In this document: one piece after another, positions 1 through 60,099 of the stretch
Position numbering within the stretch: position 1 is the stretch's first letter
Layout: each line of letters begins with the position of its first letter
Origin: Squalus acanthias
Taxonomy: Eukaryota
Reading direction: 5' to 3'
DNA: 64,000 bases
NCBI GenBank assembly: GCA_030390025.1
Contig: JASTWF010000327.1
Location: forward strand, 310,001-374,000
Notes under the pieces: model-generated
The model's input: only the letters and a program-made list of their open reading frames with translations
What the model was told of the DNA's origin: nothing
Database searches by the model: none
Made by a program: the position numbers and the translations under genes

Positions 1-2736
1 TGTTGGAAGTTCCGGGGTATAGATGTTTCAGTAAGAGTAGGGAAGTTGGTAAGAAAGGTGGAGGAGTAGCATTGTTAATCAAGGATAGTTTAACAGCGGC
101 AGAAAGGCAGTTCGAGGGGGATCTGCCGTCTGAGGTAATATGGGCTGAAGTTAGAAATAGGAAAGGAGCGGTCACGTTGTTAGGAGTTTTCTACAGGCCC
201 CCAAATAGTAATAGAGATGTGGAGGAAGAAATTGCAAAGCAGATTATGAATAGGTGTGGAGGTCACAGAGTAGTTGTCATGGGTGACTTCAACTTTCCAA
301 ATATTGATTGGAACCTTTATAGGTCAAACAGTTCGGATGGGATAGTTTTTGCACAGTGTGTGCAGGAGGGTTTCCTGACACAATATGTGGATAGGCCGAC
401 AAGAGCTGGGGCCACGTTGGATTTGGTACTGGGTAATGAACCGGGCCAAGTGTTTGATTTGTATGTGGGAGAGCACTTTGGAGATAGTGACCACAATTCG
501 GTAACTTTCACTATTGCAATGGAGAGGGATAGGGCCATACAGCAGGGCAGGGTTTATAATTGGGGGAGGGGTAATTATGATGCGATTAGGCAAGAATTAG
601 GGAGTATAAGATGGGAACAGAAACTATCAGGGAAAGGCACAAACGAAAAGTGGAGCTTTTTCATGGAGCAATTACTGCATGTCCTTGATAGGTATGTCCC
701 TGTCAGGCAGGGAGGAAATGGCTGAGTGAGAGAACCATGGTTCACAAAAGAGGTTGAATGTCTAGTCAAGAGGAAAAAGGAAGCGTATGTAAGGATGAGA
801 AAACAAGGTTCAATTGGGTCGATTGAGGGGTACAAGGTAGCAAGGAATGAGCTAAAAAAAGAGCTTAGGAGAGCTAGGAGGGGGCATGAGAAGTCCTTGG
901 CGGGTCAGATCAAGAAAAACCCCAAGGCCTTTTACTCTTATGTGAGAAATAAAAGAATGACCAGGGTGAGGGTAGGGCCGGTCAAGGACAGTAGTGGGAA
1001 CTTGTGCATGGAGTCAGAAGAGATAGGAGAGGTGATGAATGAATACTTTTCGTCAGTGTTCACCGAGGAGAGGGGCCATGTTCTTGAGGATGAGAGTGTG
1101 ATAAAGGTGGATAGGCTGGAGATGGTAGATGTTCTGAGGGAAGATGTTTTAGCAATTTTGAAGAACCTGAGGGCCGATAAGTCCCCTGGACCAGATGGGA
1201 TATATCCTAGGATTCTTTGGGAGGCAAGGGAGGAGATTGCAGAGCCTCTGGCTTTGATCTTTGGGTCCTCACTGTCCACGGGAATGGTGCCAGAGGACTG
1301 GAGAGTGGCGAATGTTGTTCCTCTCTTCAAGAAAGGAAATAGGAATGACCCTGGTAATTATAGGCCGGTTAGTCTTACTTCGGTGGTTGGTAAGATAATG
1401 GAAAAGGTCCTGAGGGATAGGATTTATGACCATTTGGAAAGGGGCAACTTAATCAGGGATAGTCAACACGAATTCGTGAAGGGTAAGTCTTGCCTAACAA
1501 ATTTGATTGAATTCTTTGAGGAGGTAACTAAATGTGTAGATGAAGGTAGAGCAGTTGATGTCGTATACATGGATTTTAGTAAGGCGTTTGATAAGGTTCC
1601 CCATGGTCGGCTCATGAAGAAAGTAAGGAGTTGTGGGATAGAGGGAAATTTGGCCGATTGGATAAGTAACTGGCTATCTCATAGAAGGCAGAGGGTGGTG
1701 GTGGATGGAACATTTTCGGACTGGAGACCAGTTACCAGCGGTGTGCCACAGGGGTCGGTGCTGGGTCCTCTGCTGTTTGTGATTTTTATCAATGACTTGG
1801 AGGAGGGGACTGAAGGGTGGATCAGTAAATTTGCTGATGACACCAAGATTGGTGGAGCAGTGGATGAGGTGGAGGGCTGTTGTAGGCTGCAAAGAGACAT
1901 TGATAGGATGCAGAGCTGGGCCGAAAAATGGCAGATGGAATTTAACCCTGATAAGTGCGAGGTGATTCATTTTGGTAGGGCAAATTTGAATAAGGATTAC
2001 AGGATCAACGGCAGGGTTCTGAGGAACGTGGAGGAGCAGAAGGATCTGGGGGTTCATATCCACAGATCTCTGAAGGTTGCCACTCAAGTGGATAGAGCAG
2101 TAAAGAAGGCCTATGGTGTGTTGGCGTTTATTAACAGAGGGTTTGAGTTTAAGAACCGTGAGGTTATGCTGCAACTGTACAGGACCTTGGTGAGACCACA
2201 TTTGGAATATTGTGTGCAGTTCTGGTCACCTCACTATAGGAAGGACGTGGAAGCATTGGAAAGAGTGCAAAGGAGATTTACCAGGATGCTGCCTGGTTTG
2301 GGGGGGAGGTCTTATGAGGAAAGATTGAGGGAGTTGGGGCTTTTCTCTTTAGAGCGGAGGAGGATGAGAGGCGACTTAATAGAGGTTTATAAGATGATGA
2401 GGGAGATAGATAGAGTGGATGTTCAGAGACTATTTCCTCGGGTAGAGGCAGCTGTTACAAGGGGGCATAACTATAAGGTGCATGGGGGCAGATATAGAAG
2501 GGATGTCCGAGGTAGATTCTTTACTCAGAGAGTGGTTGGGGTGTGGAATGGACTGCCTGCTGTGATAGTGGAGTCGGACACTTTAGGAACTTTCAAGCGG
2601 TTATTGGATAAGCACATGGAGCACACCAGAGTGATAGGGAGTGTGATAGCTTGATCTTGGTCTCGGACAATGCTCGGCACAACATCGAGGGCCGAAGGGC
2701 CTGTACTGTGCTGTACTGTTCTATGTTCTATGTTCT
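1..2736 (+). mobile_element. CR1-clade LINE, ORF2 (APE endonuclease + RT), one in-frame TGA at 723-725; 5' end outside window; inserted in a ZNF exon
   Basis: ORFs 3-725 (GVFYRPPNS, GDFNFPNIDW, SDHN) and 726-2654 (KSPGPDGI, GVPQGSVLGP, FADD) are in one frame; the 3' tail is (TGTTCTA)n. Confidence 0.95.
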
Positions 2737-3396
2737 AAATGCCCGGACTGCGGGAAGTGCTATAAAAGTTCCGGGGAACTGACATTCCATCAACGTGTTC
2801 ACACTGGGGAGAGACCGTTCAGGTGCTCTTGCTGCGGGACTGGGTTCAGGCGATCATCTGAACTCATTGTCCACCAGCGCACTCACACTGGGGAGAGACC
2901 GTTCAGGTGCTCTCACTGTGGGACTGGGTTCAGGCGATCATCTGAACTCACTGTACACCAGCGCACTCACACTGGGGAGAGGCCTTTCAGGTGCTCTCAC
3001 TGCGGGACTGGGTTCAGGCGATCATCTGAACTCACTGTACACCAGCGAGCTCACACTGGGGAGAGGCCGTTCAGGTGCTCTCACTGCGGGACTGGGTTCA
3101 GGCAGTCATCTGAACTCACTGTACACCAGCGCACCCACACTGGAGAGAGGCCATTCACCTGCACCGTATGTGGGAAGGGATTCGCTCAGTCATCCACCCT
3201 GCTGAGACACCAGCAAGTTCACACTGGGGAGAGGCCGTTCACCTGCTCTGAGTGTGGGAAGGGATTCACTCGTTCATCCACCTTGCTGACACACCAGTAC
3301 ATTCACACGAGGGAGAGACCGTTCATGTGCTCCGTGTGTGGGAAGGGATTCACTCAGTCATCCCACCTGCTGACACACCAGCGAGTTCACAACTGA
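2737..3396 (+). pseudogene. 3' part of a C2H2 ZNF exon (8 fingers) cut off from its 5' part by the CR1
   Basis: Manual translation [15 protein letters not shown]..., four CSxCGTGFRxSSELxVHQR fingers, ends HQRVHN-TGA; followed by the family 3' UTR with AATAAA at ~3542. Confidence 0.9.
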
Positions 3397-3849
3397 CTGC
3401 AGTGCTTGGATTCTGCTGTTATTGCTGCTGTTAATCACATCCAGGACTGAACCATGTTCATTCTGACAGTTGGGGTTTGTTTCTGCTGATGTTAATAACT
3501 CCTGTAACTGGGCTGGAGTTTAATATTCTGGATAGATGTCAAATAAATCAGCTTTGTTTTAAACACATTGTTGTAGATTTTTGTCTTTCCCAGCTGAGTG
3601 TTTAGCAGCACCTGGCTGGAGCTCAGAAAGGACAATCTGGGGGAGGATCGTACGGCAGGAACAGAACTTCAGCCTGGACACAGTCCTTCAGGGCCACACT
3701 GAGAGGGGCAAACGGCACTTTGGTCTTTCTCGTCTCTCTTCACTGACAGCAAAGGCCCCGTGTGGGTTAATCTCGAGGCGTGTGAGAAACGTGTCCCAGC
3801 CGCTCTCTGCCATGGTTCAGAGCTCCTGGGCACGGAACAGAAGGCTCCT

Positions 3850-4965
3850 TTAGGAATGTCTCCCAGTGCTTTTTTTTTAATGGCCTTATTAACCTGTGTC
3901 GCTACTTTTAGTGATTTGTGTATCTGTATCCCTGGATCCCTCTGCTCCTCCAGCCCATTTAGACTCTCGGGGAAAAATTCGGTGGCGCCCCCTTTGGGTC
4001 GCTAATGTCGCCGGGACTAATTTTAGCGCCCCAAATAAGTTAGCGCCCCTGCACATTAAATTCAGTTTTAGCGCCCCAAGCAGGAGGCGGGGTGCTACTG
4101 GAAGCGCTCCCCTCCCTCTTGGGGCGCTACCAGAGAATTTCGCGGCACTTCGTGCAACAGCGCCACGCCCGTCGGCACATAGCACCGTGTCATAGCAGAC
4201 CTCCCTCCCTGATTAAAGGGGCGGGGCCTAGCACTGCTCACACCGGGGCCCTGCTGGACCACCGGGGAGCGAGGTGTCGGATCAAGAGGAGCGCCGGGCT
4301 GAGCGATCACGGCCGACACCCCGAAGAAGAAAGGGGAAGGGGGCAGGTGCTGGTAGTCGGCCAAAATAAAAAGTTGCCGCCCAACACCTGCCCTTTAAGT
4401 GGCGTCGCCGCAGCTGCAGGAACGACCCCTGACCCTGTCGGACATATCGTCTGGCGATAGGTCAGGGGTCACAACCCAAGGTTGCAGCCGGGGTGCTGCG
4501 CATGGCGATGACGTTATTGCCGGCGGTGCAGTGCCGCGGGGCGCAACCGGCTACCGCCGCCGCTAACCTCCCGCTGAATATCGCGGGAGGCACAAAGCAA
4601 CCCAATTTCACCCCCTTGTTGTCCAAGTAGTGAGTGACCTCCTTATTCTTCCCACCTAAACACACCACCTCACACTGATCTACAGTGAAATTCATTTGCC
4701 AATTACACACCCATTCTGAAATTTATTAATGTCTTCTTGCATTTTGTCTTCCTCTGTATTAACTGTTCCTCCTAATTTGGTGTCATCGACAAACTTTGAA
4801 ATTGTTCTTCTGATTCCCGAGTCCAAATCGTTTCTGTAAATGGTGAACAACAGTGATCCCAGCACCGATCCCTGTGGAACACCACTTCCCACCTTTTGTC
4901 AGTCTGAGTAGCTACTCCCAACCCCTACTCTCTGTTTTCCGTTTTGTGACCAGCTTGCTATCCAT
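3850..4965 (-). mobile_element. Degenerate CR1 RT fragment split by a MITE
   Basis: Minus-strand GVPQGSVLG, WQMNF..CEVV..YLDNK, resuming as SLNGLEEQRD beyond the insert. Confidence 0.85.
3969..4614. mobile_element. GC-rich non-autonomous DNA transposon (PIF/Harbinger-like MITE)
   Basis: Ends GGGGAAAAATT / AATTTCACCCC form an imperfect TIR; 3-bp TSD CTC/CTT; removing it restores the CR1 codons GAC AAC AAG AGT CTA. Confidence 0.7.
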
Positions 4966-5145
4966 AAACAGTCTGTAAGATCGACAAGATGATCCAGGTC
5001 AGGCCGTGTGGAGTGAAGGGCCAGGCAGCAGAATGGATGGAAAGATGGCTACAAAACAGAAATCAGAGGGTTGGAGTTAAGGGAAGTTTGTTGCCATCTT
5101 TCCATCCATTCTGGTGCCTGACCTTTGACTCCACACGGCCTGACC

Positions 5146-5275
5146 GCAGTCATCTTGTAGACCGTACATACTGCAGACACAGTGCACCAGTGGTGGAGGG
5201 GGTGGATATTGAGTCCTGTGGCAGGGGCGCTGATGAAGTGGATTTCTCTGTCCCTGAGTTTTGAGGCATTGCTAG
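5146..5275 (-). mobile_element. Short CR1/L2-type LINE RT C-terminal fragment
   Basis: Minus-strand LNIHPLHHWCTVSAVCTVYKM. Confidence 0.55.
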
Positions 5276-5568
5276 TGGTGTTTTTCACCTCTTTCCTGCT
5301 TTTAAATTAAAAATCTTATTGCCAGTTTATTCAATCCTCTCCGGTAGGTCACACAAAAAAATGAGGCCTTGTAAGTTTCCCTCAGAATGACAGGCCTGAA
5401 CCCGAGTTAGAAAACATTTAGTAATTAAACCAGACTGGGCGGGGCCTGAGGTGTGAGTTAGTAACGGAAAATTGGTGGCCAGCGTACTTCACACCAGGGC
5501 TGAGGACCCGGGGACTCGGGTTTCTGTATCATTTATTGATTAATTTAGTTTATTGCCCAATCTCAATC

Positions 5569-6926
5569 AGACTGGCAGGTCATCTTGCCATCTGGCGGAG
5601 GCGAGGTTCCCCAGTGGAGGGCTCTCTACGCGGGGGTCCTTCCCTGCACCATTGGGGATCTGGGGTGGAGACTGTTGCAAGGAGCTGTCGTGTGCAACAG
5701 TTTAAGCTCCTTTCCGGACTCCAAGGCCAGATGTGTTTTTTGCGGCCTAGAGGAGTCCACGGGACGTGTATATATTCAGTGTGAGAGGTTGCAGCCCCTG
5801 TATAGTTACCTGAAGGGGCTTCTCCTCAACTCTTGGTTACACTTTAGCCCCACGCTCCTAATCTTTGCCCGCCCGGTGCAGAGGGGGCTGGGTAAGTCGG
5901 AGGATCTTCTCCTGGACCTGCTCTTGGGCCTGGCGAAAACAGCAATTTGTAGGCCCAGGATGGGCGGGGCCCATGGGGGGTCACTCTGGCTGCCTGCCTC
6001 TCTCCCGTGGTCTTGTCCCTGCCCGGGTGGCCCTGGAGAGGGAGCAGGCGGTGTCCACCGGTTCACTTGATACCTTCCTCGACCGGTGGGCACCTCAGGT
6101 TAAAGAGGCGATAATCGATCCTCACAATCACATTGTGATTGAATTATTATTTGTGAGTGTCACTGTATTGTACACAGTTATTATTCATCGAATAGATTCA
6201 TAGAAACTTACAGCACAGAAGGAGGCCATTCGGCCCGTCGTGCCTGTGCCGGCTCTTTGAAAGAGTCGTCGTGTTTAGTCCCACATCCTCACTTTCTGTC
6301 CGTAACCCTGTCAGTTGCTCAAGTTCCCGTCCAACTCTGCTTTACAATTATTAACGGAATCAGCTTCCACCATCTTTTCAGGTCGAGCGTTCCAGATCCC
6401 CACAACTCTCTGAGTGGAAACATTTCTCCTCATCTCTCCTCCAGATCTTTTGACAATATTTTTGAATCTTTGACCTCTAGTTATTGACCCACTCACCAGA
6501 GGGAATGTTTCTTTCCCTATTTATTCTGTCAAAATCTCTCATCACCTTGAAAACCTCTATTAAGTCACCTCTGAACCTTCTCTGTTCCAAGGAGAACAGT
6601 CCTAACTTTCCCAACCTCTCCTCATAACTGAAGTCCCTCATCCCTGGTAAACCTCCTCTGGGCCCTTTCTAAGGCCTTTACACCTTTCCTCAAGTGTGGG
6701 GCCCAGAATTGTCCACAACACTCCAGCTGAGGCCTAACCTGTGGTTGATGAAGTTCCAGCATCATCTCTTTGCTTTTATATTCTATTCCTCTGTTTCTAA
6801 ACCCAAGTAACCCGTTATTGTGTGTTTAATATCTGTGGGGCACTGGGGCACTTGCCTTAATGGTTTTTGCTCCCGTCTGGTGTCACTGGGGCAACTTAGT
6901 GTCACCCCTACAGGTAGTGAAAAATG
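5569..6926 (+). mobile_element. 5'-truncated Tx1/L1-clade LINE (zf-RVT C-terminus + 3' UTR) with a nested antisense CR1
   Basis: WRALY..DLGWRLL..CVFCGLEES..CERL; 14-bp direct repeat GCCCAATCTCAATC at 5555-5568 and 6927-6940. Confidence 0.75.
6186..6812 (-). mobile_element. CR1 3' fragment
   Basis: Minus-strand TRGQRFK..MRRN..TQRVVGIWN and a CR1-type 3' tail. Confidence 0.85.
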
Positions 6927-7111
6927 GCCCAATCTCAATCGGACGACAAATAAATGAATTTTCTCTTCACCAATTCAGGTTTTTAGTTCTTTACCCAGAA
7001 TTCGCGACGCGGCAGAATGGGCCCTATCAATGACAACCCGATCCTAGTGCGCCGGCTCATCACTGGACTGTGCTCTGAGCATGTGCAGTGCGAGTGGTGG
7101 AGACGGACTGA

Positions 7112-8511
7112 GGCGTGTGTCCTCCTTGGAGGGGAACCAGGTAAAGAGGGTGTGTGTCCTCCTTGGAGGGGAACCAGGCAAAGAGGGCGAGTATCCTCCT
7201 TGGAGGGGAACCAGGCAAAGAGGGTGTGTGTCCTCCTTGGAGGGGAACCAGCCAATGAGGGTGTGTGTCCTCCTTGGAGAGAAACCAGGCAAAGAGGGTG
7301 TGTGTCCTCCTTGGAGGGGAACGAGGCAAAGAGGGTGTGTGTCCTCCTTGGAGGGGAACCAGGCAAAGAGGGCGTGTGTCCTCCTTGGAGGGGAACCAGG
7401 CAAAGAGGGCGAGTGTCCTCCTTGGAGGGGAACCAGGCAAAGAGGGTGAGTGTCCTCCTTGGAGGGGAACCAGGCAAAGAGGGTGTGTGTCCTCCTTGGG
7501 GAACCAGGCAAAGAGGGCGAGTGTCCTCCTTGGAGAGGAACCAGGTAAAGAGGGCGTGTGTCCTCCTTGGGGAACCAGGCAAAGAGGGCGTGTGTCCTCC
7601 TTGGAGGGGAACCAGGCAAAGAGGGTGTGTGTCCTCCTTGGAGGGGAACCAGGCAAAGAGGGTGTGTGTCCTCCTTGGGGAACCAGGCAAAGAGGGCGAG
7701 TGTCCTCCTTGGAGAGGAACCAGGTAAAGAGGGCGTGTGTCCTCCTTGGGGAACCAGGTAAAGAGGGCGTGTGTCCTCCTTGGAGGGGAACCAGGCAAAG
7801 AGGGCGAGTGTCCTCCTTGGAGGGGAACCAGGCAAAGAGGGTGTGTGTCCTCCTTGGGGAACCAGGCAAAGAGGGCGAGTGTCCTCCTTGGAGAGGAACC
7901 AGGTAAAGAGGGCGTGTGTCCTCCTTGGGGAACCAGGCAAAGAGGGCGTGTGTCCTCCTTGGAGGGGAACCAGGCAAAGAGGGTGTGTGTCCTCCTTGGA
8001 GGGGAACCAGGCAAAGAGGGTGTGTGTCCTCCTTGGGGAACCAGGCAAAGAGGGCGAGTGTCCTCCTTGGAGAGGAACCAGGTAAAGAGGGCGTGTGTCC
8101 TCCTTGGGGAACCAGGTAAAGAGGGCGTGTGTCCTCCTTGGAGGGGAACCAGGCAAAGAGGGCGAGTGTCCTCCTTGGAGGGGAACCAGGCAAAGAGGGC
8201 GAGTGTCCTCCTTGGAGGAGAACCAGGTAAAGAGGGCGAGTGTCCTCCTTGGGGAACCAGGCAAAGAGGGCGTGTGTCCTCCTTGGGGAACCAGGTAAAG
8301 AGGGCGAGTGTCCTCCTTGGGGAACCAGGTAAAGAGGGCGAGTGTCCTCCTTGGAGGGGAACCAGGCAAAGAGGGTGTGTGTCCTCCTTGGAGGGGAACC
8401 AGGTAAAGAGGGTGTGTGTCCTCCTTGGAGGGGAACCAGGTAAAGAGGGTGTGTGTCCTCCTTGGAGGGGAACCAGGCAAAGAGGGCGTGTGTCCTCCTT
8501 GGAGGGGAACC
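7112..8511. repeat. Minisatellite of 37/34-bp units GTGTGTCCTCCTTGG(AGG)GGAACCAGGCAAAGAGGGY with a 179-bp higher-order period
   Basis: Direct tandem periodicity; homologous positions at 7558, 7737, 7916 and 8095. Confidence 0.97.
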
Positions 8512-11943: not shown

Positions 11944-12872
11944 TCACTTGTGAACTCGCTGGTGTGTCAGCAGGTTGGATGAACAAGTGAATCTCTTCTC
12001 ACAGATGGAGCAGGTGAACGGCCTCTCCCCAGTGTGAACTCGCTGGTGTGTCAGCAGGGTGGATGAACAAGTGAATCTCTTCTCACACATGGAGCAGGTG
12101 AACGGCCTCTCCCCAGTGTGAGTGCGTTGGTGTACAATGAGATTGGATGACTGCCTGAATCTCTTCCCACATTGACAGCAACTGAATGGTTTATCGTCAG
12201 TGTGAACACGCTGGTGTTGAATCAGTTCCTCAGAGCTTTTAAAGCAGTTTGCACAGTTGGAGCATTTAAAAGGTCTCTCGTCAGTGTGAACTCGCTGGTG
12301 TCTCAGAAGGTGGGATGAATTAGTGAAACCCTTCCCACACACGGAGCAGGTGAACGGCCTCTCCCTAGTGTGAACTCGCTGGTGTTGAATCAGTTCCTCA
12401 GAGCTTTTAAAGCAGTTCGCACAGTTGGAGCATTTAAAAGGTCTCTCGTCAGTGTGAACTCGCTGGTGTCTCAGAAGGTGGGATGAATTAGTGAAACCCT
12501 TCCCACACATGGAGCAGGTGAACGGCCTCTCCCCGGTGTGCCGGTAGCGATGGGTTTTCAGCTCAGACGGGTAAGTGAATCTCTTTCCACAGTCCCCACA
12601 TTTCCACGGTTTCTCCGTGGTGCGGGTGTCCTTGTGACTCTCCAGGTTGGACGATCAGTTGAAGCCTCGTCCACACACAGAACACGTGTACCGTTTCTCC
12701 CCGCTGTGAATGGTACGATGATTTTTCAGGCTGTGTAACTGGTTAAAACATTTCTCCGTCCACATTCAAAGGCCGATAATATTCACGTCCAGATGTATCG
12801 AGTGCCTCTGTCAGATCTTGACGTGATGTTTGGTGTGAGTTTCCCATCTGCAAATCCTCCCCTTCTAATATC
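11944..12872 (-). pseudogene. C2H2 ZNF exon, 8 fingers; family start MEKP is ACG; probable pseudogene or N-truncated gene
   Basis: Frame open from ACG 12618 to stop 11944; internal 168-bp two-finger duplication; acceptor TTTTACAG at ~12873; upstream in-frame TGA 12655-12657. Confidence 0.75.
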
Positions 12873-13558: not shown

Positions 13559-13893
13559 GGAGGCGGATAATGTTGAGTGTTTTAATAATGGGGCCTGGGG
13601 CCGCACTCGGGGTGTGTGCAGCCCGCGTCCCCCCGGGGTTTATTAACCCGCTCCCTGAGCTCTCTCAGCTCACATTGCCCGGGTGATTGACGGGAGCTCC
13701 GGACCAATAGGAAGAGCGGGGCGGGCCTGGAGGACCGAGCGGGCGGCGGGTCCTCCAACCAATCGGAGTGTGTTAGGGGCGGGGCTTGACCTTTAAACCT
13801 GAACAACAGAAGGTGAGCTGAGCATGCGCGGGCTGCACACACCCCGAGTGCGGCCCCAGGCCCCATTATAAGATCAGTGAACATTATCCGCCT
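13559..13893. promoter_or_regulatory. Eroded palindromic bidirectional promoter (copy A) between divergent ZNFs
   Basis: Same CCAAT/GC-box core as 24599-24737; each inverted arm carries an internal deletion. Confidence 0.65.
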
Positions 13894-14380: not shown

Positions 14381-14590
14381 GAGAAATATTACACGGGGAC
14401 AATTTATAGGGAAGGACCGAGTGTGGGAAAGGGGGTTTTAGAAGTCCGGAATTAAAATGAAAATATTGTCAAAATGAAAATATTGTCATGATTAAATTAG
14501 ATTACTGGGGAGTAACCATATATGTGTTCTGTGTTTAGACGAGGCTTCAACCGATTGTCCAACCTGTAGAGACACAAGGACACCCGCACC

Positions 14591-16404
14591 ATGGAGAAAC
14601 CGTGCAAATGTGGGGACTGTGGGAAGGGATTCTCTTGCCCATCTGAGCTGGAAACTCATCGGCGCAGTCACACCGGGGAGAGGCCGTTCACCTGCTCTGT
14701 GTGTGGGAAGGGATTCACTCGTTCATGGAACCTCACTGAACACCAGCGCATTCACACCGGGGAGAGGCCATTCACCTGCTCGGTGTGTGGGAAGGGATTC
14801 ATTTCTTCATCCCACCTCATTACACACCAGCTTGTTCACACTGATGATAGATCTTTTAAATGTTCTGACTGTGAGAAGAGCTTTAAAAGCAGAAATTCTT
14901 TGCTGGCACACCAACGCACTCACACAGGGGAAAGGCCATTCACCTGCTCCGTGTGTGCGAAGGGATTTGCTCGTTCATCCAACTTGCTGGCACACCAACG
15001 CACTCACAGCAGGGAGAGGCCGTTCACCTGCTCCGTGTGTGGGAAGGGATTCACAGAGTCTGCCAATCTCACTGCACACCAACTTGTTCACACCAAGAAG
15101 AGACTTTAGAATGTTCCGACTGTGAGAAGAGCTTCAAAAGCACAAGGGATCTGCTGACACACCAGCGAGTTCACACTGGGGAGAGGCCGTTCACCTGCTC
15201 CGTGTGTGGGAAGGGATTCACTTCTTCATCCCACCTCACTACACACCAACTTGTTCACACTGATAAGAGACCTTTTAAATGTTCTGACTGTGAGAAGACC
15301 TTTAAAAGGAAAAATGATCTGCTGGCACACCAACGCACTCACACTGGGGAGAGACCGTTCACCTGCTCCGTGTGTGGAAAGGGATTCATTCGTTCACCCC
15401 ACTTGCTGAGACACCAACGCACTCACACCGGGGAGAGGCCGATAGAGTATAATGTGGGAAAGTGTGAGGTTATCCACTTCGGCAGGAAAAATAAAAAAGC
15501 AAACTATTATTTAAACGGAGAGAGATTACAAAATGCTACAGTTCAGAGGGACCTGGGGGTCCTTGTGCATGAAACACAAAAAGTTAGCATGCAGGTACAG
15601 CAAGTGATCAAAAAGGCAAATGGAATGTTGGCCTTTATTGCAAGGGGGTTGGAGTATAAAAGCAGGGAAGGCCTGCTACAACTGTACAAGGTATTGGTGA
15701 GACCACACCTTGAGTACTGCGTACAGTTTTGGTCTCCTTATTTAAGGAAGGATATACTTGCATTGGAGGCAGTTCAGAGACGATTCACTAGGTTAATTCC
15801 AGAGATGAGGGGTTTGACTTATGAGGAAAGGTTGAGCAGGCTGGGCCTATACTCATTGGAATTTAAAAGAATGAGAGGTGATCTTATTGAAACATATAAG
15901 ATACTGAGGGGGCTCGACAAGGTAGATGCAGAGAGGATGTTTCCCCTCGTGGGGAAATCTAGAACGCGGGGGCACAGTTTTAGAACTGAGATGAGGAGGA
16001 ATTTCTTCTCTCAGAGGGTCGTAAATCTGTGGAATTCTCTGCCCCAGAGAGCTGTGGAGGCTGGGTCATTAAATACATTTAAGGTGGAGATAGACAAATT
16101 TTTGCAAGATAAGGGAGTGAAGGGTTATGGGGAGAGGGCTGGGAAGTGGCTTTGAGCCCAAGATCAGCCATGATCTTATTGAATGGTGGAGCAGGCTCGA
16201 GGGGCCAAGTGGCCTATTCCTGCTCCTATTTCTTATGTTCTTATGTTCACCTGCTCCGTGTGTGGGAAGAGATTCACAGAGTCTGCCATCCTCACTGCAC
16301 ACCAACTTGTTCACACTGATAAGAGATCATTTAAATGTTCTGAATGTGAGAAGAGCTTTAAAAGCACAAGGGATCTGCTGAAACACCAGCGAGTTCACAG
16401 GTGA
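14591..16404 (+). pseudogene. C2H2 ZNF of originally 12 fingers; frameshift at ~15105 (6-finger ORF 14591-15109) and a CR1 insertion
   Basis: MEKPCKCGDCGK start; fingers resume at 16246 and end HQRVHR-TGA at 16404, followed by the family 3' UTR. Confidence 0.85.
15442..16244 (+). mobile_element. 5'-truncated CR1 inserted in the ZNF linker TGERP|F
   Basis: EYNVGKCEVIHFG...GYGERAGKW and a TTCTTATG tail; near-identical to the 3' part of 26978-28165. Confidence 0.95.
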
Positions 16405-17142
16405 CTGCAGGGGTTGTATTCTGCTGTTATTGCTGCTGTTAATCACATTCAGGACTGAACCATGTTCATTCTGATAGTTGGGGTTTGTTTCTGATGTTAA
16501 TAACTCCCTAACTGGGCTGGAGTTTAATCTTCTGGATATATGCCAAATAAATCAGCTTTGTTTCCAACACACAGTGTGTCGAGTCCTTGACGTCTCCAAG
16601 ATAAGAGGAGACTAATTGATGTCCTGTTACCTGCCTGCTCCATTTTTGGGCCTTTTCACCTTTCTAACTCTAGATTATTTCAGTTCTCATACCTTCGGTT
16701 ATTCTCATGGACAAGTCCCAGCTCCCCAAACATTCCAGAGTGCCTCTCCTAGCCTTGGTATCCAGGGAAGGTCTTGGTAACACGCCCGGGATCAATAAAC
16801 ACAAAACCCAGTCTGTTAATCACTTTCAGCGACTGGACTTAGCGTGTGACCCACAGCATCTCTCTCACCTTCGATGTGTGAATAGAGCATCACGCCTGCA
16901 AACCTGGTTTAGATTTAAATTAACTCAGGAAATGTATTTAACAGAAGATCAACAAGGAAACACATCACGGCCCAATAATCCAGCTCTACATTCACAAGAG
17001 GAAGTCTGTTATCTAACTCCTCGAGTGGACAAAATAAAGAAAGATCCCAAATGTAAGGGCCCCTCGAATACTTTAATACCTTTCAAATCGTGACCGGTTC
17101 CTCCTTATTCTAGAATTCCCCATCCGTGTGGGAGTTGATATT

Positions 17143-17216
17143 GGTCAGTTTGCTCAGATGGTTCGAGCATGGTGCTAATAACGCCAACGTCGCGGGTTCA
17201 ATCCCCGCCCTGATGA
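17143..17216 (+). pseudogene. tRNA-Ile(AAT)-derived pseudogene, head of a chimeric retrocopy
   Basis: GGTCAGTTTGCTCAGATGGTTCGAGCATGGTGCTAATAACGCCAACGTCGCGGGTTCAATCCCCG resembles vertebrate tRNA-Ile-AAT; mismatches in the acceptor stem. Confidence 0.85.
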
Positions 17217-17717
17217 GCTACGCTGTTTCGGCACGGGCTCGACGGGCCGAATGGCCTCCTTCTGTGCTGGAACCATTGATTCTATGGTCAAAATCTGCTC
17301 ATTGGAAATTTCTCACTGATTTTTCTGATTCGAATTTCAAGCTGACCAGTTCCTTCACTGAGAATCTCCAAGGGGACTCTGATTTAAACACAGCTCTCCC
17401 CTCATTTATATCCGGGATTAGAGTTTACGGGAATTTGAATACCTGACCACTCAAATTTAAAAGGGTCCGTCAGTGATATACAGACTGAACCAATCACACA
17501 GCTCTGGGTCAGTTTGAATTATTCCTCTCTCCAGCCTGTAACCGATGAAATTTGTAACACTGAGGCTGAAATTCCACTTCCGTGCGCCGGGGGTGCAGGC
17601 AGTGCTGGGCACAGAGGGAGCAGCAAACCGGGTTGAGAGAGGGCACAGTGGGCCGGCCCTTGACCTGGGTTTTACGGTGAGCATGTGCTGGGGCCCAAGC
17701 TCATTGCCAACGTATGC

Positions 17718-18710
17718 ATTCCAACCCTGGGACTGTACATGGGGATTCCAGCCCTGGGACTGTACATGGGGATTCTAACCCTGGGACTGTACATGGGGAT
17801 TCCAGCCCTGGGACTGTCCATGGGGATTCCAGCCCTGGGACTGTACATGGGGATTCTAACCCTGGGACTGTACATGGGGATTCTAACCCTGACACTGTAC
17901 ATGGGGATTCCAAACCCTGGGACTGTACATGGAGATTCTAAACCTGGGACTGTACATGGGGATTCTAACCCTGGGACTGTACATGGGGATTCTAACCTTG
18001 AGACTGTACATGGGGATTCTAACCCTGGGACTGTACATGGGGATTCCAGCCCTGGGACTGTACATGGGGATTCTAACCCTGGGACTGTACATGGGGATTC
18101 TAACCCTGGGACTGTACATGGGGATTCTAACCCTGAGACTGTACATGGGGATTCTAACCCTGGGACTGTACATGGTGATTCTAACCCTGGGACTGTACAT
18201 GGGGATTCTAACCTTGAGACTGTACATGGTGATTCTAACCCTGGGACTGTACATGGGGATTCTAACCCTGGGACTGTACGTGGGGATTCTAACCCAAGGA
18301 CTGTACATGGGGATTCCAACCCTGGGACTGTACGCGGGGATTCTAACCCTGGGACTGTACGTGGGGATTCAAACCCTGGGACTGTACATGGGGATTCCAA
18401 CCCTGGGACTGTACATGGGGATTCTAACCCTGGGACTGTACATGGGGATTCTGAACCTGGGACTGTACATGGGGATTCTAACCCTGGGACTGTACATGGG
18501 GATTCTGACCCTGGGACTGTACATGGGGATTCTAACCCTGGGACTGTACATGGGGATTCTAACCTTGGGACTGTACATGGGTATTCTAACCCTGGAACTG
18601 TACATGGGGATTCTAACCCTGGGACTGTACATGGGGATTCTAACCCTGGGACTGTACATGGGTATTCTAACCCTGGGACTGTACATGGGGATTCTAACGC
18701 TGGGACTGCA
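17718..18710. repeat. 27-bp minisatellite CTGGGACTGTACATGGGGATTCTAACC
   Basis: About 36 tandem copies. Confidence 0.97.
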
Positions 18711-18714
18711 CATC

Positions 18715-22522: not shown

Positions 22523-23197
22523 TCACTTGTGAACTCGCTGGTGTTTCAGCAGGTTAGATGACTGAGTGAATCCCTTCCCACACACAGAGCAGGGAAATGG
22601 CCTCTCCCCAGTGTGAATATGCCGGTGTGTCAGAAGGTGGGATGAACGAGTGAATCCCTTCCCACACGTGGAGCAGGTGAACGGTCTCTCCCCGGTGTGA
22701 GTGCGTTGGTGTTTCAGCAGATCCCTTCTGCTTTTAAAGCTCTGCTCACAGTCAGCACATTTAAATGGTCTCGTATCAGTGTGAACAAGTTGATGTGCAG
22801 TGAGGGTGGATGACTGAGTGAATCTGTTCCCACACACGGAGCAGGTGAACGGCCTCTCCCCGGTGTGAGTGCGTTGGTGTTGCATCAGATACTTTCTGCT
22901 TTTAAAGCTCTGCTCACAGTCAGAACATTTAAATGGTCTCTTATTAGAGTGAACAACTTGGTGTGCAGTGAGGCTGGAGGAGTTAGTGAATCCCTTCCCA
23001 CACACGGAGCAGGTCAACGGCCTCTCCCCAGTGTGAATACGCTGGTGTGTCAGAAGGTGGCATAATTTAGTGAATCCCTTCCCACACACGGAGCAGGTGA
23101 ACGGCCTCTCCCCGGTGTGACTGCGTCGATGAGTTTCCAGCTCAGATGGGTAATTGAATCCCTTCCCACAGTCCCCACATTTCCACGGTTTCTCCAT
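22523..23197 (-). CDS. C2H2 zinc-finger protein, 8 fingers, 224 aa, intact
   Basis: ACCATGG start ([10 protein letters not shown]), TGERPF linkers; acceptor at ~23561; AATAAA in the 3' UTR at ~22375. Confidence 0.85.
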
Positions 23198-24044
23198 GGT
23201 GCGGGCGTCCTTGTGTCTCTCCAGGTTGGATGATCAGTTGAAGCCTCGTCCACACACAGAACACGTGTACGGTTTCTCCCCACTGTGAACGGTGCGATGT
23301 TTTTTCAGGCTGTGTAACTGGTTAAAGCTCTTTCCACAGTCAGTGCACTGGAACACTCTCACTCGGGTGTGTGTGTCTCGGTGCTTTTCCAGTCACACTG
23401 ATGTTTGAAATCTTTCCCCACAGACAGAACAGACAACATTTCTCCTTCCACATTCAAAGGCCGATGATATTCAGGTCCTGATGAATGGAGTGACTCTGTC
23501 AGATCTTGACGTGATGTTTGGTTTGAGTTTCCCGTCTGTAAATCCTCCTCTTTTAACACCCTGTAAAAGGAGTTTACAAAAGTCATCACTGTAAATACAG
23601 GATAGAAATTCAGAACAGACAATTCTAGTTTCTATGGAACATTCTTTCCTCTCTTGTTCCCCGAAAGCTAAAAATCCCCGTCCCACACACTCTCCCTCCT
23701 CCCTGTGCTGAAATCCAAGCCCATCGCACCATCTCCAACATTTTTTCCTCTGCTCCCAGTTTTCTTCCTCCTCTGAAGATGCTGACTCTGGCTGGGTTCA
23801 GTTCTACACTCACTGGTTCCCCACCTTTTGAACTGCTTCGGGCACTTTGTTAAACACACACACAGCAGACGCACATTAATCTGATGGGAGATCACTGACA
23901 CACGAGCAGCCCGTGGTGTGGAGCCTCCTGAGAGTCCGGCCCCTTTCCAGCCAGTATTTACAGGAGCTGGGGCACGGAAAACAGTCTAATTGAAATTAGT
24001 GATATATTTATTCACACAAACCAGCCCCCAAAGTAATGAATAAT

Positions 24045-24375
24045 TTCTCCTTTATTTACAGACGCTCCCTGACCAGTCTCCATTTACAGACGCTCCCTGA
24101 CCAGTCACCATTTCTCCTCCATTTACAGACGCTCCCTGACCAGTCTCCATTTCTCCTCCATTTACAGACGCTCCCTGACCAGTCACCATTTCTCCTCCAT
24201 TTACAGACGCTCCCTGACAAGTCTCCAGTTCTCCTCCATTTACAGACGCTCCCTGACCAGTCACCATTTCTCCTCCATTTACAGACGCTCCCTGACAAGT
24301 CTCCAGTTCTCCTCCATTTACAGACGCTCCCTGACCAGTCACCATTTCTCCTTCATTTGCAGACGCTCCCTGACT
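24045..24375. repeat. 39-bp minisatellite (reverse complement of the 13967 array)
   Basis: About 8 copies of CATTTACAGACGCTCCCTGACCAGTC. Confidence 0.95.
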
Positions 24376-24459
24376 TCCTGTCCGTCCTGGAGTTTGGCGC
24401 GGGGCCCCTTTGCTGAGCGAATCGGGAGAAACCGGGAAGCGGCGGGCGGATAATGTTGA

Positions 24460-24876
24460 GTGTTTTAATAATGGGGCCTGGGGCCGCACTCGGGGTGTGT
24501 GCAGCCCGCGTCCCCCCGGGGTTTATTAACCCGCTCCCTGAGCTCTCTCACCTGATGTGTCAGCGGCTGCTGCCAAGGTCCGCGCATGCTCAGCTCACAC
24601 TGCCCGGGTGATTGACGGGAGCTCCGGACCAATAGGAAGAGCGGGGCGGGGCTGGAGGACCGAGCGGGCGGCGGGTCCTCCAACCAATCGGAGTGTGTGA
24701 GGGGCGGGGCTTGACCTTTGAACCTGAACAACAGAAGGTGAGCTGAGCATGCGCGGACCTTGGCAGCAGCCGCTGACACATCAGGTGAGAGAGCTCAGGG
24801 AGCGGGTTAATAAACCCCGGGGGGACGCGGGCTGCACACACCCCGAGTGCGGCCCCAGGCCCCATTATTAAAACAC
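24460..24876. promoter_or_regulatory. Palindromic bidirectional CpG-island promoter (copy B)
   Basis: 139-bp inverted arms 24460-24598 and 24738-24876; core has 2 CCAAT and 2 GGGGCGGGGC; each arm has an NRF1-like GCATGCGC and a CAG|GTGAG donor motif; lies between divergent ZNFs. Confidence 0.75.
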
Positions 24877-25708
24877 CCAGGGTTCCAGGGTTGGAATCCC
24901 CATGTACAGTCCCAGGGCTGGAATCCGGCACCCGGAAGTGGAATTTCAGCCTCAGTGTTACAAGTTTCATCGGTTACAGGCTGGAGAGAGGAATCATTCA
25001 AACTGACCCAGAGCTGTGTGATTGGTTCAGTCTGTGTATCACTGACGGGCCCTTTTAAATTTGAGTGGTCAGGTATTCAAATTCCCAGTAATCTAATCCC
25101 GGATATGAAAGAGGGGAGAGCTGTGTTTAAATCAAAGAGTCTCCTTGGAGATTCTCTGAGTGAAGGACCTGGTCGGCTTGAAACAGCTGAAAAATCGGTT
25201 AAAAATGTCCAATTAGCAGTTTTTGACCAATATCGACTCCCACAGGGATGGGGAATTCTAGAATAAGGAAGGAACCGGTCAGGATTTGAAAGGTCTTTAC
25301 AAAGGATTCGAGGGACTCTTCATTTGGGATCTTTCTTTATTTCATCCACTTGAGAGTTCGATAACAGGCTTCCTCCTGTGAATGTAGAGCTGGATTAGTG
25401 GGCTGTGACGTGTTTACTTGTTCATCTTTTGTTAAATACATTTGGTGAGTGAATTTAAATTTAAAACCAGGTTTGCAGGCGTGATGCTCTATTCACACAT
25501 TAAAAGTGAGTGAGATGCTGTGGGACACATGCTAAGTCCAGTAGCTGAAAATGATTAACAGCCTGGGTTTTGTGTTTAGTGATCACCATGTACAGTCCCA
25601 GGGTTAGAATCCCCACGTGTGAAGGAACATTGTATAGAAACTAGAATTGTCTGTTCTGAATTTCTATCCTGTACTTACAGTGATGACTTTTGTAAACTCC
25701 TTTTACAG

Positions 25709-26413
25709 GGTATTAGAAGGGGAGGATTTGCAGACAGGGAAACTCAAACCAAACATCACGTCAAGATCTGACAGAGTCACTCCATTCATCAGGACCTGAA
25801 TATCATCGGCCTTTGAATGTGGAAGGAGAAATGTTTGTCTGTTCTGTCTGTGGGAAAAGATTTCAAACATCAGTGTGACTGGAAAAGCACCGAGACACAC
25901 ACACCCGAGTGAGAGTGTTCCAGTGCACTGACTGTGGAAAGAGCTTTAACCAGTTACACAGCCTGAAAAAACATCGCACCGTTCACAGCGGGGAGAAACC
26001 GTACACGTGTTCTGTGTGTGGACGAGGCTTCAACTGATCGTCCAACCTGGCGAGACAGAAGGACACCCGCACCACGGAGAAACCGTGGAAATGTGGGGAC
26101 TGTGGGAAGGGATTCAGCTCCCCGTCCGACCTGGAAACTCATCAACGCAGTCACACCGGGGAGAGGCCATTCACCTGCTCTGTGTGTGGGAAGGGGTTCG
26201 CTCAGTCGTCCAGCCTGTTGACGCACCAACGAATTCACACTGGGGAGAGGTCGTTCACCTGCTCCGTGTGTGGGAAGGGTTTCTCTCGATCGTCCAAACC
26301 TGCTGACGCACCAACGAATTCACACTGGGGGGAGGTCGTTCACCTGCTCCGTGTGTGGGAAGGGTTTCTCTCGATCGTACAGCCTGCTGAGACACCAGCG
26401 AGTTCACAAGTGA
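25709..26413 (+). pseudogene. C2H2 ZNF pseudogene
   Basis: Acceptor TTTTACAG at 25701-25708; in-frame TGA at 25876 and 26035; ACG for ATG at 26074; +1 frameshift at ~26297. Confidence 0.85.
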
Positions 26414-26977
26414 CTGCAGGAGTTGGATTCTGATGTTATTGCTGCTGTTAATCACATCCAGGACTGAAATCATTCTGACAGTTGGCGTTTGTTTCTGCTG
26501 ATGTTAATAAACCCCAGCCCAGTTAAAGGGTTAATATTCTGGATATATAGCTGATTGACTTGTTGGGGCTGCAGTGTCCCTTTAAGAACCGTTGTCTGTG
26601 ACCTTTCCCCTTAATTCAGGACTTTCATAAATTATTTGACAAAATTATGAATTTTACTTTAACCCTAAATTGACCTTTGGTACAAAATCTACAATTTATT
26701 GTCTGAAAAGTTCCACTGATTAACATCTCCAATTAGAAAGTGCTGATTAATCCTCGCTGACAATTCTTACTGACTTGCACATTACACACAGTGGCACCTC
26801 CATTATCCACCAGAAAGAAGGGGAATGGGAATTGGTGGAGAATCGAGAGTCCCCAAATGTTGCCCCTCCCGTCTGGTACAGCAATCCCCTCGGCACGGGA
26901 ATGGAGACAAGTCCAATCCAAGTAACGGGCTGAGTTTAATCTTTCTGGGCCTGTGGGATCAGTTTATATCAGACAGG

Positions 26978-36265: not shown

Positions 36266-36467
36266 GAGGGATTCTAACCCTGGGACTGTACATGGGGATT
36301 CCAACCCTGGGACTGTACATGGGGATTCTAACCCTGGGACTGTACATGGGGATTCTAACCCTGGGACTGTACATGGGGATTCCAACCCTGGGACTGTACA
36401 TGGGGATTCCAACCCTGGGACTGTACATGGGGATTCCAGCCCTGGGACTGTACATGGGGATTCCAAC
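36266..36467. repeat. 27-bp minisatellite, ~7 copies
   Basis: Same unit as the 17718 array. Confidence 0.95.
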
Positions 36468-42744: not shown

Positions 42745-43225
42745 GAAGCCCCGCCCACTCGTGGTTCCTTTTTTCCAGTTCTGACGAAAGGTCATCGACC
42801 TGAAACGTTAACTCTGTTTCTCTCTTCACAGATGCTGCCTGACCTGCTCAGCATCTCCAGCATTTTGTTTATATTCCTTTACAAAGATGGCCGCGCACGC
42901 GCAGTATCACGCAAGATGGCGACGCACAAACCCTCAGCTGTCCTTTACAAAGATGGCGGCCGTTAACCTGGGCCTGTTCCTGGGAAAAAACCTCCGAGCT
43001 GGAAACGCGGAACCTGTCGGTTCTCATTTGGGGTTTGCGGCCTGCACCAGATGTTTATGAAATCCACCCGCCGGGTGCATTACCTTCCTGCGCCCCGCTG
43101 ATTCGTAATCGGCGTAAATCCCGCTGCAGCTTTTCTTCGCTTCTCGCCCTCGCCGGCCCGGATCACAATGACACTGCGCATGCTCCAAATACAGGCGGGC
43201 GCTGCGCCTGCGCACTGGACTCCTC
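42745..43225. promoter_or_regulatory. CpG-island promoter-like region
   Basis: GCCCCGCCC, three YY1-like AAGATGGC, NRF1-like GCGCATGC and GCGCCTGCGCA, minus-strand donor AAG|GTAATG at ~43083. Confidence 0.6.
42772..42873 (+). mobile_element. Penelope-like fragment with a hammerhead-like motif
   Basis: CTGACGA-AAGGTC-ATC-GACCT-GAAAC; TTCCTTT duplicated at both ends; absent from the related promoter at ~60130. Confidence 0.7.
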
Positions 43226-49393: not shown

Positions 49394-49736
49394 GAGGGAT
49401 TCCAGCCCTGGGACTGTACATGGGGATTCCAACCCTGGGACTGTACATGGGGATTCTAACCCTGGGACTGTACATGGGGATTCTAACCCTGGGACTGTAC
49501 ATGGGGATTCTAACCCTGGGACTGTACATGGGGATTCCAACCCTGGGACTGTACATGGGGATTCTAACCCTGGGACTGTACATGGGGATTCTAACCCTGG
49601 GACTGTACATGGGGATTCTAACCGTGGGACTGTACATGGGGATTCTAACCCTGGGACTGTACATGGGGATTCCAACCCTGGGACTGTACATGGGGATTCT
49701 AACCCTGGGACTGTACATGGGGAATCCAACCCTGAG
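49394..49736. repeat. 27-bp minisatellite, ~12 copies
   Basis: Same unit. Confidence 0.95.
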
Positions 49737-49864
49737 ACTGGACAGGGGGGCCCAGCTCTGGGGCTCTTCTCTTACAATTGTGTTGGATGTTAACCATATG
49801 CTTTGCTTTTACCAGTGCCTTCAGGAGAGATGGTGAGAAATTCAAAGTGTGGAGAGTTTGAATC

Positions 49865-59269: not shown

Positions 59270-59950
59270 CTGAGGGATTCCAATCCTGGGACTGTACATG
59301 GTGATTCTAACCCTGGGACTGTACATGGGGATTCTAACCCTGGGACTGTACATGGGGATTCTAACCCTGGGACTGTACATGGGGATTCCAACCCTGGGAC
59401 TGTACATGGGGATTCTAACCCTGGGACTGTACATGGGGATTCTTACCCTGGGACTGTACATGGGATTCTACCCTGGGACTGTACATGGGGATTCTAACCC
59501 TGGGTCTGTACATGGGGATTCTAACCCTGGGACTGTACATGGGGATTCCAACCCTGGACTGTACATGGGGATTCTAACCTGGGACTGTACATGGGGATTC
59601 TAACCCTGGGGTCTGTACATGGGGATTCTAACCCTGGACTGTACATGGGGATTCCAACCCTGGGACTGTACATGGGGATTCTAACCCTGGGACTGTACAT
59701 GGGGATTCAACCCCTGGGACTGTACATGGGGATTCTCAACCCTGAGACCTGTACATGGGGATTCCAACCCTGGGACTGTACATGGGATTCTAACCCTGGA
59801 CTGACCATGAGGGATCTAGGATTCTAACCCTGGGACTGTACATGGGGATTCTAACCCTGGGACTGTACATGGGGATTCTAACCCTGGGACTGTACATGGG
59901 GATTCCAACCCTGGGACTGTACATGGGGATTCCAACCCTGGGACTGTACA
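59270..59950. repeat. 27-bp minisatellite, ~25 copies, indel-rich centre
   Basis: Same unit. Confidence 0.95.
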
Positions 59951-60099
59951 AGGGGGGCCCAGCTCTGGGGCTCTTCTGTTACAATTGTGTGGAATGTTAA
60001 CCGTATGCTCTGCTTTTACCAGCGCCTTCAGGAGAGATGGTGAGAAATCCGAAGTGTGGAGCGTCTGAATCAAACAACTGAGTTAATGTAATTTCCCGG

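Follow-up and report, generated by a model that had tools for sequence, protein, structure and literature searches.

The chorion locus of Bombyx mori is a cluster of gene pairs (A/B and HcA/HcB), dozens of them arranged head to head, and every pair has a short common promoter (PMC4639761). Among the Hc pairs the promoters are more than 90% identical; the chorion genes have a small exon 1 and a large exon 2, and gene conversion is invoked (PMC4639761). In vertebrates, the bidirectional CpG-island promoters described in PMC3082894 are GC-rich, have starts less than 1 kb apart, and, in human, are enriched in NF-Y and NRF1 sites. The zebrafish FiNZ-ZNF genes form a large, fast-evolving, clustered C2H2 family, whose subfamilies have a common promoter architecture (PMC10547256); the main text of that paper makes no mention of bidirectional, gene conversion, shark, or cartilaginous. 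One passage concerns ZNF clusters in a catshark (PMC11979771), and PMC11406177 gave no match. How large ZNF families outside mammals multiply and diversify their fingers yet retain a working promoter is the wider question here. The window analyzed here, a 64,000-nucleotide stretch of the Squalus acanthias genome, contains a mirror-image cassette between two head-to-head ZNF genes, of which no description was found in open-licence PubMed Central and bioRxiv texts, supplements aside. Taking all lines of evidence jointly, we consider it probable that the cassette is a young, family-wide two-way ZNF promoter, likely of one origin, whose copies swap genes by inter-locus recombination.

The cassette occupies positions 24460 to 24876 of the window. 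Its left arm (24460..24598, minus strand) contains a 17-bp motif with an NRF1-like site, a likely non-coding exon 1 that ends at 24552, a GT donor, and the first 92 nt of the intron. The right arm (24738..24876, plus strand), with its likely exon 1 end at 24784, is an exact mirror: all 139 of 139 positions pair between the arms, as the sequence-only reading had noted. The core between them (24599..24737, unstranded) is 139 bp long and carries the motif TGATTGAC at 24609-24616, CCAAT boxes at 24629-24633 and 24684-24688, and GC boxes at 24643-24650 and 24701-24708. Bases 24599-24713 of the core are common to a one-armed form of the cassette described below, and the remaining 24-bp linker (24714..24737, plus strand), which joins the core to the second arm, is found in the two-armed form only and creates a second possible donor, AAG|GTGAGC, at 24737 (plus strand). 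The hairpin fold of the cassette has a z score of −31 relative to 100 shuffles, and Rfam gave no matches at E values up to 1 over 24300-25100.

Most of the elements recognized from the letters alone are in place. The NRF1-like GCATGCGC, the CAG|GTGAG donors, and the two CCAAT and two GC boxes are all present, and the acceptors end at 25708 (plus) and 23561 (minus), as had been claimed. The junction coordinates need correction: the two exons end at 24784 and 24552 rather than at 24786 and 24550. The DR1-like site TGACCTTTGAACC that had been singled out is a minority allele, carried by 6 of 58 two-armed cores, 49 of which have TGACCTTTAAACC (TTTAAA) instead, and the motif in the window's core is incidental. 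Similarly, the 139/139/139 lengths are real, but the equal size of arms and core is due to chance: across 87 two-armed loci the inverted repeat ranges from 0 to 197 bp, its length set by which two gene types pair. A second cassette, at 13574..13869 (unstranded), retains a whole core (13674-13812, 97.8% identical) between ZNF arrays at 11947-12654 (minus) and 14570-15400 (plus). It had been presented as a further copy of the same structure; however, both of its arms carry internal deletions that remove the CAG|GTGAG donor, and this decayed cassette is therefore no longer a mirror.

Outward of the arms, the left gene continues with the rest of a type A intron (23561..24459, minus; a 39-bp array at 24078-24374) and the right gene with the rest of a type C intron (24877..25708, plus). 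The left exon 2 (22526..23560, minus) and the right exon 2 (25709..26430, plus) both open with a leader of decayed fingers, which on the left contains in-frame TGA stops. The left leader is followed by an ATG-led frame (about 23197-22526) with eight C2H2 fingers and no other domain. The right gene reads TTEKP where the family start reads TMEKP and thus has no family ATG, and its frame shifts after about three fingers; on these grounds, the right exon 2 is likely a pseudogene copy. No KRAB or other effector domain was found in the two window frames. Contrary to the earlier view that the two genes are clearly diverged, the two second exons match at 93% of their first 666 aligned nt, while the introns and later fingers differ.

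The window holds several further features of this gene family. In-frame TGA codons at fixed finger positions of the exon 2 leader are common to paralogues (23233-23400, minus; 25875-26040, plus; 12654, minus). A 27-bp unit that starts at the outer edge of the type C arm (24882-24926) recurs at 25582-25615 and forms long arrays elsewhere (17718-18713, 36268-36467, 49396-49749, 59274-59955); 39-bp and 63-bp arrays are found in other intron types, each intron type having its own minisatellite. An orphan type C intron copy (16790-17590, minus), about 90% alike, has the 27-bp unit expanded to 37 copies and adjoins neither arm nor core. At 43176 and 60419, ZNF genes on the minus strand are preceded by other promoter regions of NRF1-like type and do not use the cassette.

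To judge how widely the cassette is distributed, we counted exact matches across the assembly that holds the window (3.71 Gb in 3,882 contigs). A core 19-mer occurs at least 675 times (some ten of the first hundred matches belong to a transposon); there are at least 1,082 copies of an arm 32-mer, at least 351 and 344 cores, by strand, with the 17-bp repeat at both ends, at least 264 copies of the right junction, and at least 1,817 copies of a second-exon marker, all of these counts being subject to the possibility that some small contigs are alternative haplotypes. We place the number of two-armed cassettes genome-wide, in ZNF clusters, at 264-350 or more. The listed copies come from a single 20.9-Mb contig and from numerous small ones. 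A 320-kb stretch of the former is densely packed with ZNF genes, cassettes alternating there with one-armed cores and with other promoters, and all five outlying stretches fetched from large contigs hold ZNF arrays as well. With several hundred copies, whose arms point to ZNF genes, the cassette is indeed a recurring building block of the ZNF clusters, as had been suggested. It is not the sole one, since of the nine copies of ZNF genes in the window only four are attached to such a cassette. The counts of arms and exon markers (1,082 versus 1,817) imply that as much as about 60% of a single ZNF subfamily may use one promoter module, several hundred copies of it as mirror pairs. We rejected an assembly artefact as the source of the structure, given a contig from an independent run (X19 record 9) that spans the junction of core and right arm, and private variants in the arms.

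Two sets of cores were used: the 30 cores most similar to that of the window, which are a biased sample, and 90 cores from the first listed genome matches. The second set comprises 58 two-armed and 32 one-armed cores, with the two-armed form somewhat enriched because 16 loci were obtained through the two-armed pattern. One-armed cores have core bases 1-115 and the left arm in common with the two-armed form and other sequence upstream. Within 2.4 kb of the core, sense ZNF fingers are found to the left of 25 of 38 two-armed and 12 of 27 one-armed cores. On the right, an outward ZNF gene tracks the presence of the arm: 30 of 36 two-armed cores have one, versus none of 25 one-armed cores. To the left, too, lie the ZNF genes to which older core variants (74-87% alike) point. 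Given the direction of these older variants and of the one-armed cores, we infer from the sequences that left is the ancestral direction and that the two-armed form is derived. All two-armed copies seen have one common 24-base linker or a deletion of it, which suggests that the two-armed form likely arose once. The source of the linker was not found, and none of the loci examined has a linker copy with non-core sequence upstream. In the likely scenario, an older ZNF promoter that worked one way acquired, in a single event, a mirror-image ZNF gene start behind it. Twin-core cassettes, in which two partial cores lie back to back between two arms, make a fuller palindrome (G000:C29:10361639-10362600 and 10380013-10380900; L189). 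These, together with short-core forms, were considered as independent origins of mirror cassettes, and both were read instead as derivatives of the two-armed form.

Cassette copies that carry nearly the same gene can differ in what lies across the core. We found 37 gene pairs, some of them overlapping, that are at least 98% identical over 1 kb. Seven have an untyped partner; among the 30 typed pairs, the partner type agrees in 17 and differs in 13, of which 3 lie on the opposite side. Nine of the 13 were checked, and the partners are 88% alike or less in eight and 95% alike in one. The side on which a gene lies depends on its arm: genes with the full arm are found to either side of the core and genes without it on one side only. 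Types F and G, for instance, have only 17 bp in common with the arm, and all 31 of 31 copies lie on the left. LINE insertion J and a short-arm deletion, each of which we read as a single event, are both found on either side of the core. Type C genes lie on the right in 38 of 42 cases genome-wide, and the four left-hand copies represent three events. A left-hand copy (L137) and a right-hand copy (L152) are 98.9% identical over 3.5 kb and have different partners; in a second event the gene sits on a one-armed core; and in the third, present in two copies (L139 and L140), the A-C pair is reversed relative to that of the window, which fits an inversion in place. The reversed A-C lineage shows 93-97% identity, and the other side switches came with new partners. 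All four allele pairs are found at core sites 53/122 and 26/53, with alleles common to one- and two-armed forms; site 53 is hypervariable, so the allele pairs there could stem from repeated mutation.

We read these patterns as occasional non-allelic crossover or conversion in the core and arm, with flips that happen but are rare. Near-identical genes have other partners or sides likely because copies recombine, rather than because cores flip frequently. A crossover or conversion within the 115 bp common to all cores would swap a same-side partner, and a crossover in the arm in the opposite register would move a gene to the other side or, rarely, invert the core. A bolder extension, which we regard as possible and rather unlikely, is that the cassette is a self-spreading "universal socket" for the ZNF repertoire, with promoter-aimed breaks driving conversion and crossover among hundreds of copies. 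If so, one arm sequence would sweep through older gene types, every new finger array would be born with a working promoter, and reshuffling or inversion of gene pairs would be frequent enough for individuals to differ in them. A search for SSXRD (PRDM9) gave no match, although equally none of 14 controls matched. According to PMC5519329, SSXRD is absent from one chimaera and weak in one shark.

Several observations point to promoter function. The cassette region has a GC content of 64% and a CpG observed/expected ratio of 0.72, versus 0.42 for the window. Outside CpG sites, off-consensus bases of the core are less frequent at motif positions (34 of 2,430; 1.4%) than at other positions (132 of 4,320; 3.1%; Fisher P = 1.7e−5), where the copies are related by duplication, so that neither the counts nor the P value are of independent events. 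This comparison also excluded a single hypervariable site and the 19-mer by which the loci had been selected. The donor lies at the matching place in an old copy borne by a transposon and in types F and I of the diverged first exons, and the motif GAGCTGAGCATGC recurs with unrelated flanks elsewhere in the fetched cluster DNA. We take the CCAAT, GC, and 17-bp motifs to match NF-Y, Sp, and NRF1-type factors, and nearby intron types presumably hold YY1-like and GABPA-like motifs. The geometry is that of a head-to-head pair: arms 139 bp apart, each with a donor, an acceptor, and an outward ZNF exon, the 5′ ends being placed from sequence. The marks of a CpG-island promoter, GC-rich and with constrained NF-Y, Sp, and NRF1-type motifs, thus bear out this part of the sequence-only reading. 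We propose that the cassette is likely a two-way promoter, in which NF-Y, Sp, and NRF1-type factors would bind the core and the 17-bp motif, transcription would start in each arm, and the short first exon would be spliced to a common acceptor.

Transcript data consist of unstranded contigs, and 18 of the 24 runs are RNA by guess; the 5′ ends of cassette-borne ZNF genes allow no unique mapping with short reads. Junctions 24784-25709 and 24552-23560 are not among the matches listed for the runs compared, and two-way transcription is accordingly a prediction. No retrocopy of the spliced form was found in the genome. Summed contig depth climbs steeply at the acceptor in all four runs compared. In contigs of runs X2 and X9, other letters are joined at 25706-25707, as expected of spliced paralogues, and this mixed consensus differs from the arm exon. 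Depth in X2 is 15-41 in core bins, 1,312 in the arm-exon bin, and 42-114 in the type C intron; in X19, a DNA-size run, the core (38,505-346,068) instead lies far above the type C intron (1,498-7,280). X1 shows the X2 pattern much less (core, 38-223; arm exon, 369), and X9 and X14 have low or no cover of the arm, to which we attach no meaning for its age. The difference between X2 and X19 hints weakly that the arms and right-hand genes are transcribed and the core is not, contig depth being unable to rank the parts of a gene.

These data also bear on the view that the core drives only the ancestral left side and that the right arm and gene are a silent or weak by-product of one inverted duplication. 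All one-armed copies and the older core variants (74-87% alike) do point left, there is no divergent transcript among the matches listed, and the window's own right gene is broken. However, genes on the right are intact roughly as frequently as those on the left (14 of 36 versus 16 of 38 by a crude test for an intact frame, figures that the analysis also gives for sides lacking one). The right arm has an NRF1-like motif of its own, and ahead of the arm lie a GC box, at a distance of about 30 bp, and a CCAAT box, at about 50 bp. In addition, contigs of the type C intron, which lies on the right in 38 of 42 cases, show 0-1 differences in two RNA-like runs, a weak hint given that RNA is guessed. 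We therefore hold a purely one-way promoter to be unlikely.

The perfect match between the window's arms had been ascribed to recent origin or to ongoing arm-to-arm conversion. Both arms are whole in 39 of the 87 two-armed loci, and among these 39 the mean arm difference is the same within a locus (1.28) as between loci (1.27). None of 50 variants is common to both arms of one locus, where 0.17 were expected by chance and power is therefore limited. These two results leave local arm-to-arm conversion unsupported, save that it may proceed at a very slow rate; recent amplification accounts for part of the identity. In type B genes (n = 51), divergence rises outward from 0.6-0.9% in the arm and 0.6-0.8% in the intron to 2% in the exon leader, 5.6% in the first finger, and 16% in later fingers. 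The identical arm adjoins intron types A, B, C, D, and E, which are old and far apart; the boundaries are sharp and fall at arm position 131, 139, or 153. Because the same arm ends sharply at differing positions, the repeat length depends on the pair, and sharp edges against dissimilar introns suggest that some exchange was needed besides recent amplification. Arm identity is thus a family-wide property, and it probably reflects the youth of the family and homogenization from the promoter outward rather than correction between the arms of one locus. Some observations count against the two-way promoter reading. Many sides have no intact frame (16 of 38 left and 14 of 36 right by the crude test), and the window's right gene looks broken. 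Moreover, arms differ by 0.76% per site from the window's arm, whereas cores differ by 2.75% from their consensus, and simple promoter selection does not explain why the core is more variable than the arm. LINE-like insertions of types J and K lie at the same spot just behind the donor (arm position 64; L021, L034, L110, L113, and L121, and L032, L038, and L087), possibly a preferred target in open promoter chromatin.

Could strong purifying selection on a regulatory exon 1 and intron start, together with recent duplication, account for the arms with no special exchange, partners changing by ordinary rearrangement? Recent amplification explains much, since type B introns are as uniform as the arm (0.6-0.8%), and CpG islands mutate slowly in general. 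Yet the same arm adjoins mutually distant introns (A to E), single-event markers (LINE insertion J and the short-arm deletion) are on both sides of the core, and partners differ while the gene itself is less than 2% diverged, so that we consider selection with duplication quite improbable as the whole account. Still less probable is a local palindrome that is kept by arm-to-arm conversion and whose core flips frequently, as an on/off or strength switch. The window's perfect 139-bp arms and the reversed A-C pair (L139 and L140 versus the window and L152) would suit it. The absence of variants common to a locus's arms and the equal differences within and between loci, however, largely refute the converting palindrome, and the presence of two whole arms in only 39 of 87 loci also counts against it. 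The predicted flipping of the core stands to the extent that genes occur on both sides; they do so unevenly (38:4 in type C, far from even), and only one of three side switches fits an in-place inversion. Because both sides already have the same start, a flip would also change little.

A one-armed promoter copy that is about 20% diverged is carried by a hAT-type element, which measures about 1.1-1.3 kb, ends in 14-bp terminal repeats, and has 8-bp target duplications (exact in L050 and L052). Its end pattern, counted irrespective of the promoter, has 91 matches, 86 of them on contigs C1-C27. The element also holds intron sequence and a retroelement-like piece, from which we read the transposon-borne copy as a probable capture of the promoter by the element. 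This copy shows core, motif, and donor to be much older than the present arm. The element, which is old, non-autonomous, and hAT/Charlie-like and includes a ZNF promoter, exon 1, donor, and intron start, is dispersed on large contigs (L047, L048, L050, L052, L053, L056, L057, and L058; around 1440-1610 and the preceding 1.1 kb); it is a Pack-type, promoter-carrying element that could have seeded promoters elsewhere. That the cassette is itself a non-autonomous DNA transposon (MITE) with the arms as long terminal inverted repeats has a next to negligible probability: hundreds of near-identical copies do have long inverted repeats round a short core, and an older one-armed version rides inside a real hAT-type element, but the cassette has no fixed ends (inverted repeats of 0-197 bp, set by partner types), its flanks are about ten recurring ZNF intron types within ZNF arrays, unlike the hAT end pattern spread over large contigs, and direct repeats outside the arms measure 0-1 bp in 83 of 87 loci. 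The sequence-only reading had named target-site duplications without ZNF association as the mark of a MITE; with no such duplications and a ZNF association, the cassette is not one.

How, then, does a family-wide two-way promoter compare with known systems? The human Y palindromes P1-P8 have near-identical inverted arms round a spacer, gene sequence in each arm, and arm-to-arm conversion; the arms here, in contrast, are about 0.14 kb long, and their identity is family-wide rather than within a locus. In bacterial invertible promoters (fim, hin, and Bacteroides invertons), a promoter-bearing core lies between inverted repeats. Like them, the cassette has both core orientations among its copies; unlike them, it has a skewed orientation that looks like the result of rare evolutionary events and a start on both sides, and we know of no recombinase site or enzyme for it. 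As in KRAB-ZNF and FiNZ-ZNF genes, a large poly-finger family is arranged in clusters; unlike in KRAB-ZNF genes, the two window frames contain no KRAB or effector domain. Vertebrate bidirectional promoters are single-copy and serve unrelated genes, whereas here one promoter is repeated through a family with a mirror-identical exon 1. Such a module predicts shared regulation of hundreds of genes by few factors, and it offers a fixed point for measuring non-allelic exchange. The chorion pairs are similar in that pairs are repeated in a cluster with a conserved common promoter, here in 264-350 two-armed copies with cores 2.75% off consensus. However, chorion pairs join two gene families whose sides are not interchangeable, while here both sides belong to the same ZNF family and have the same arm; because their first 131-153 bp are the same on both sides, a gene that bears the arm can take either position. 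The hundreds of copies and the coexisting one-armed form also set the cassette apart. We suggest that it works like the chorion pairs without being a member of that system. Two-way promoters, paired multigene families, and concerted evolution are all known, and the combination seen here appears to be a variant on them.
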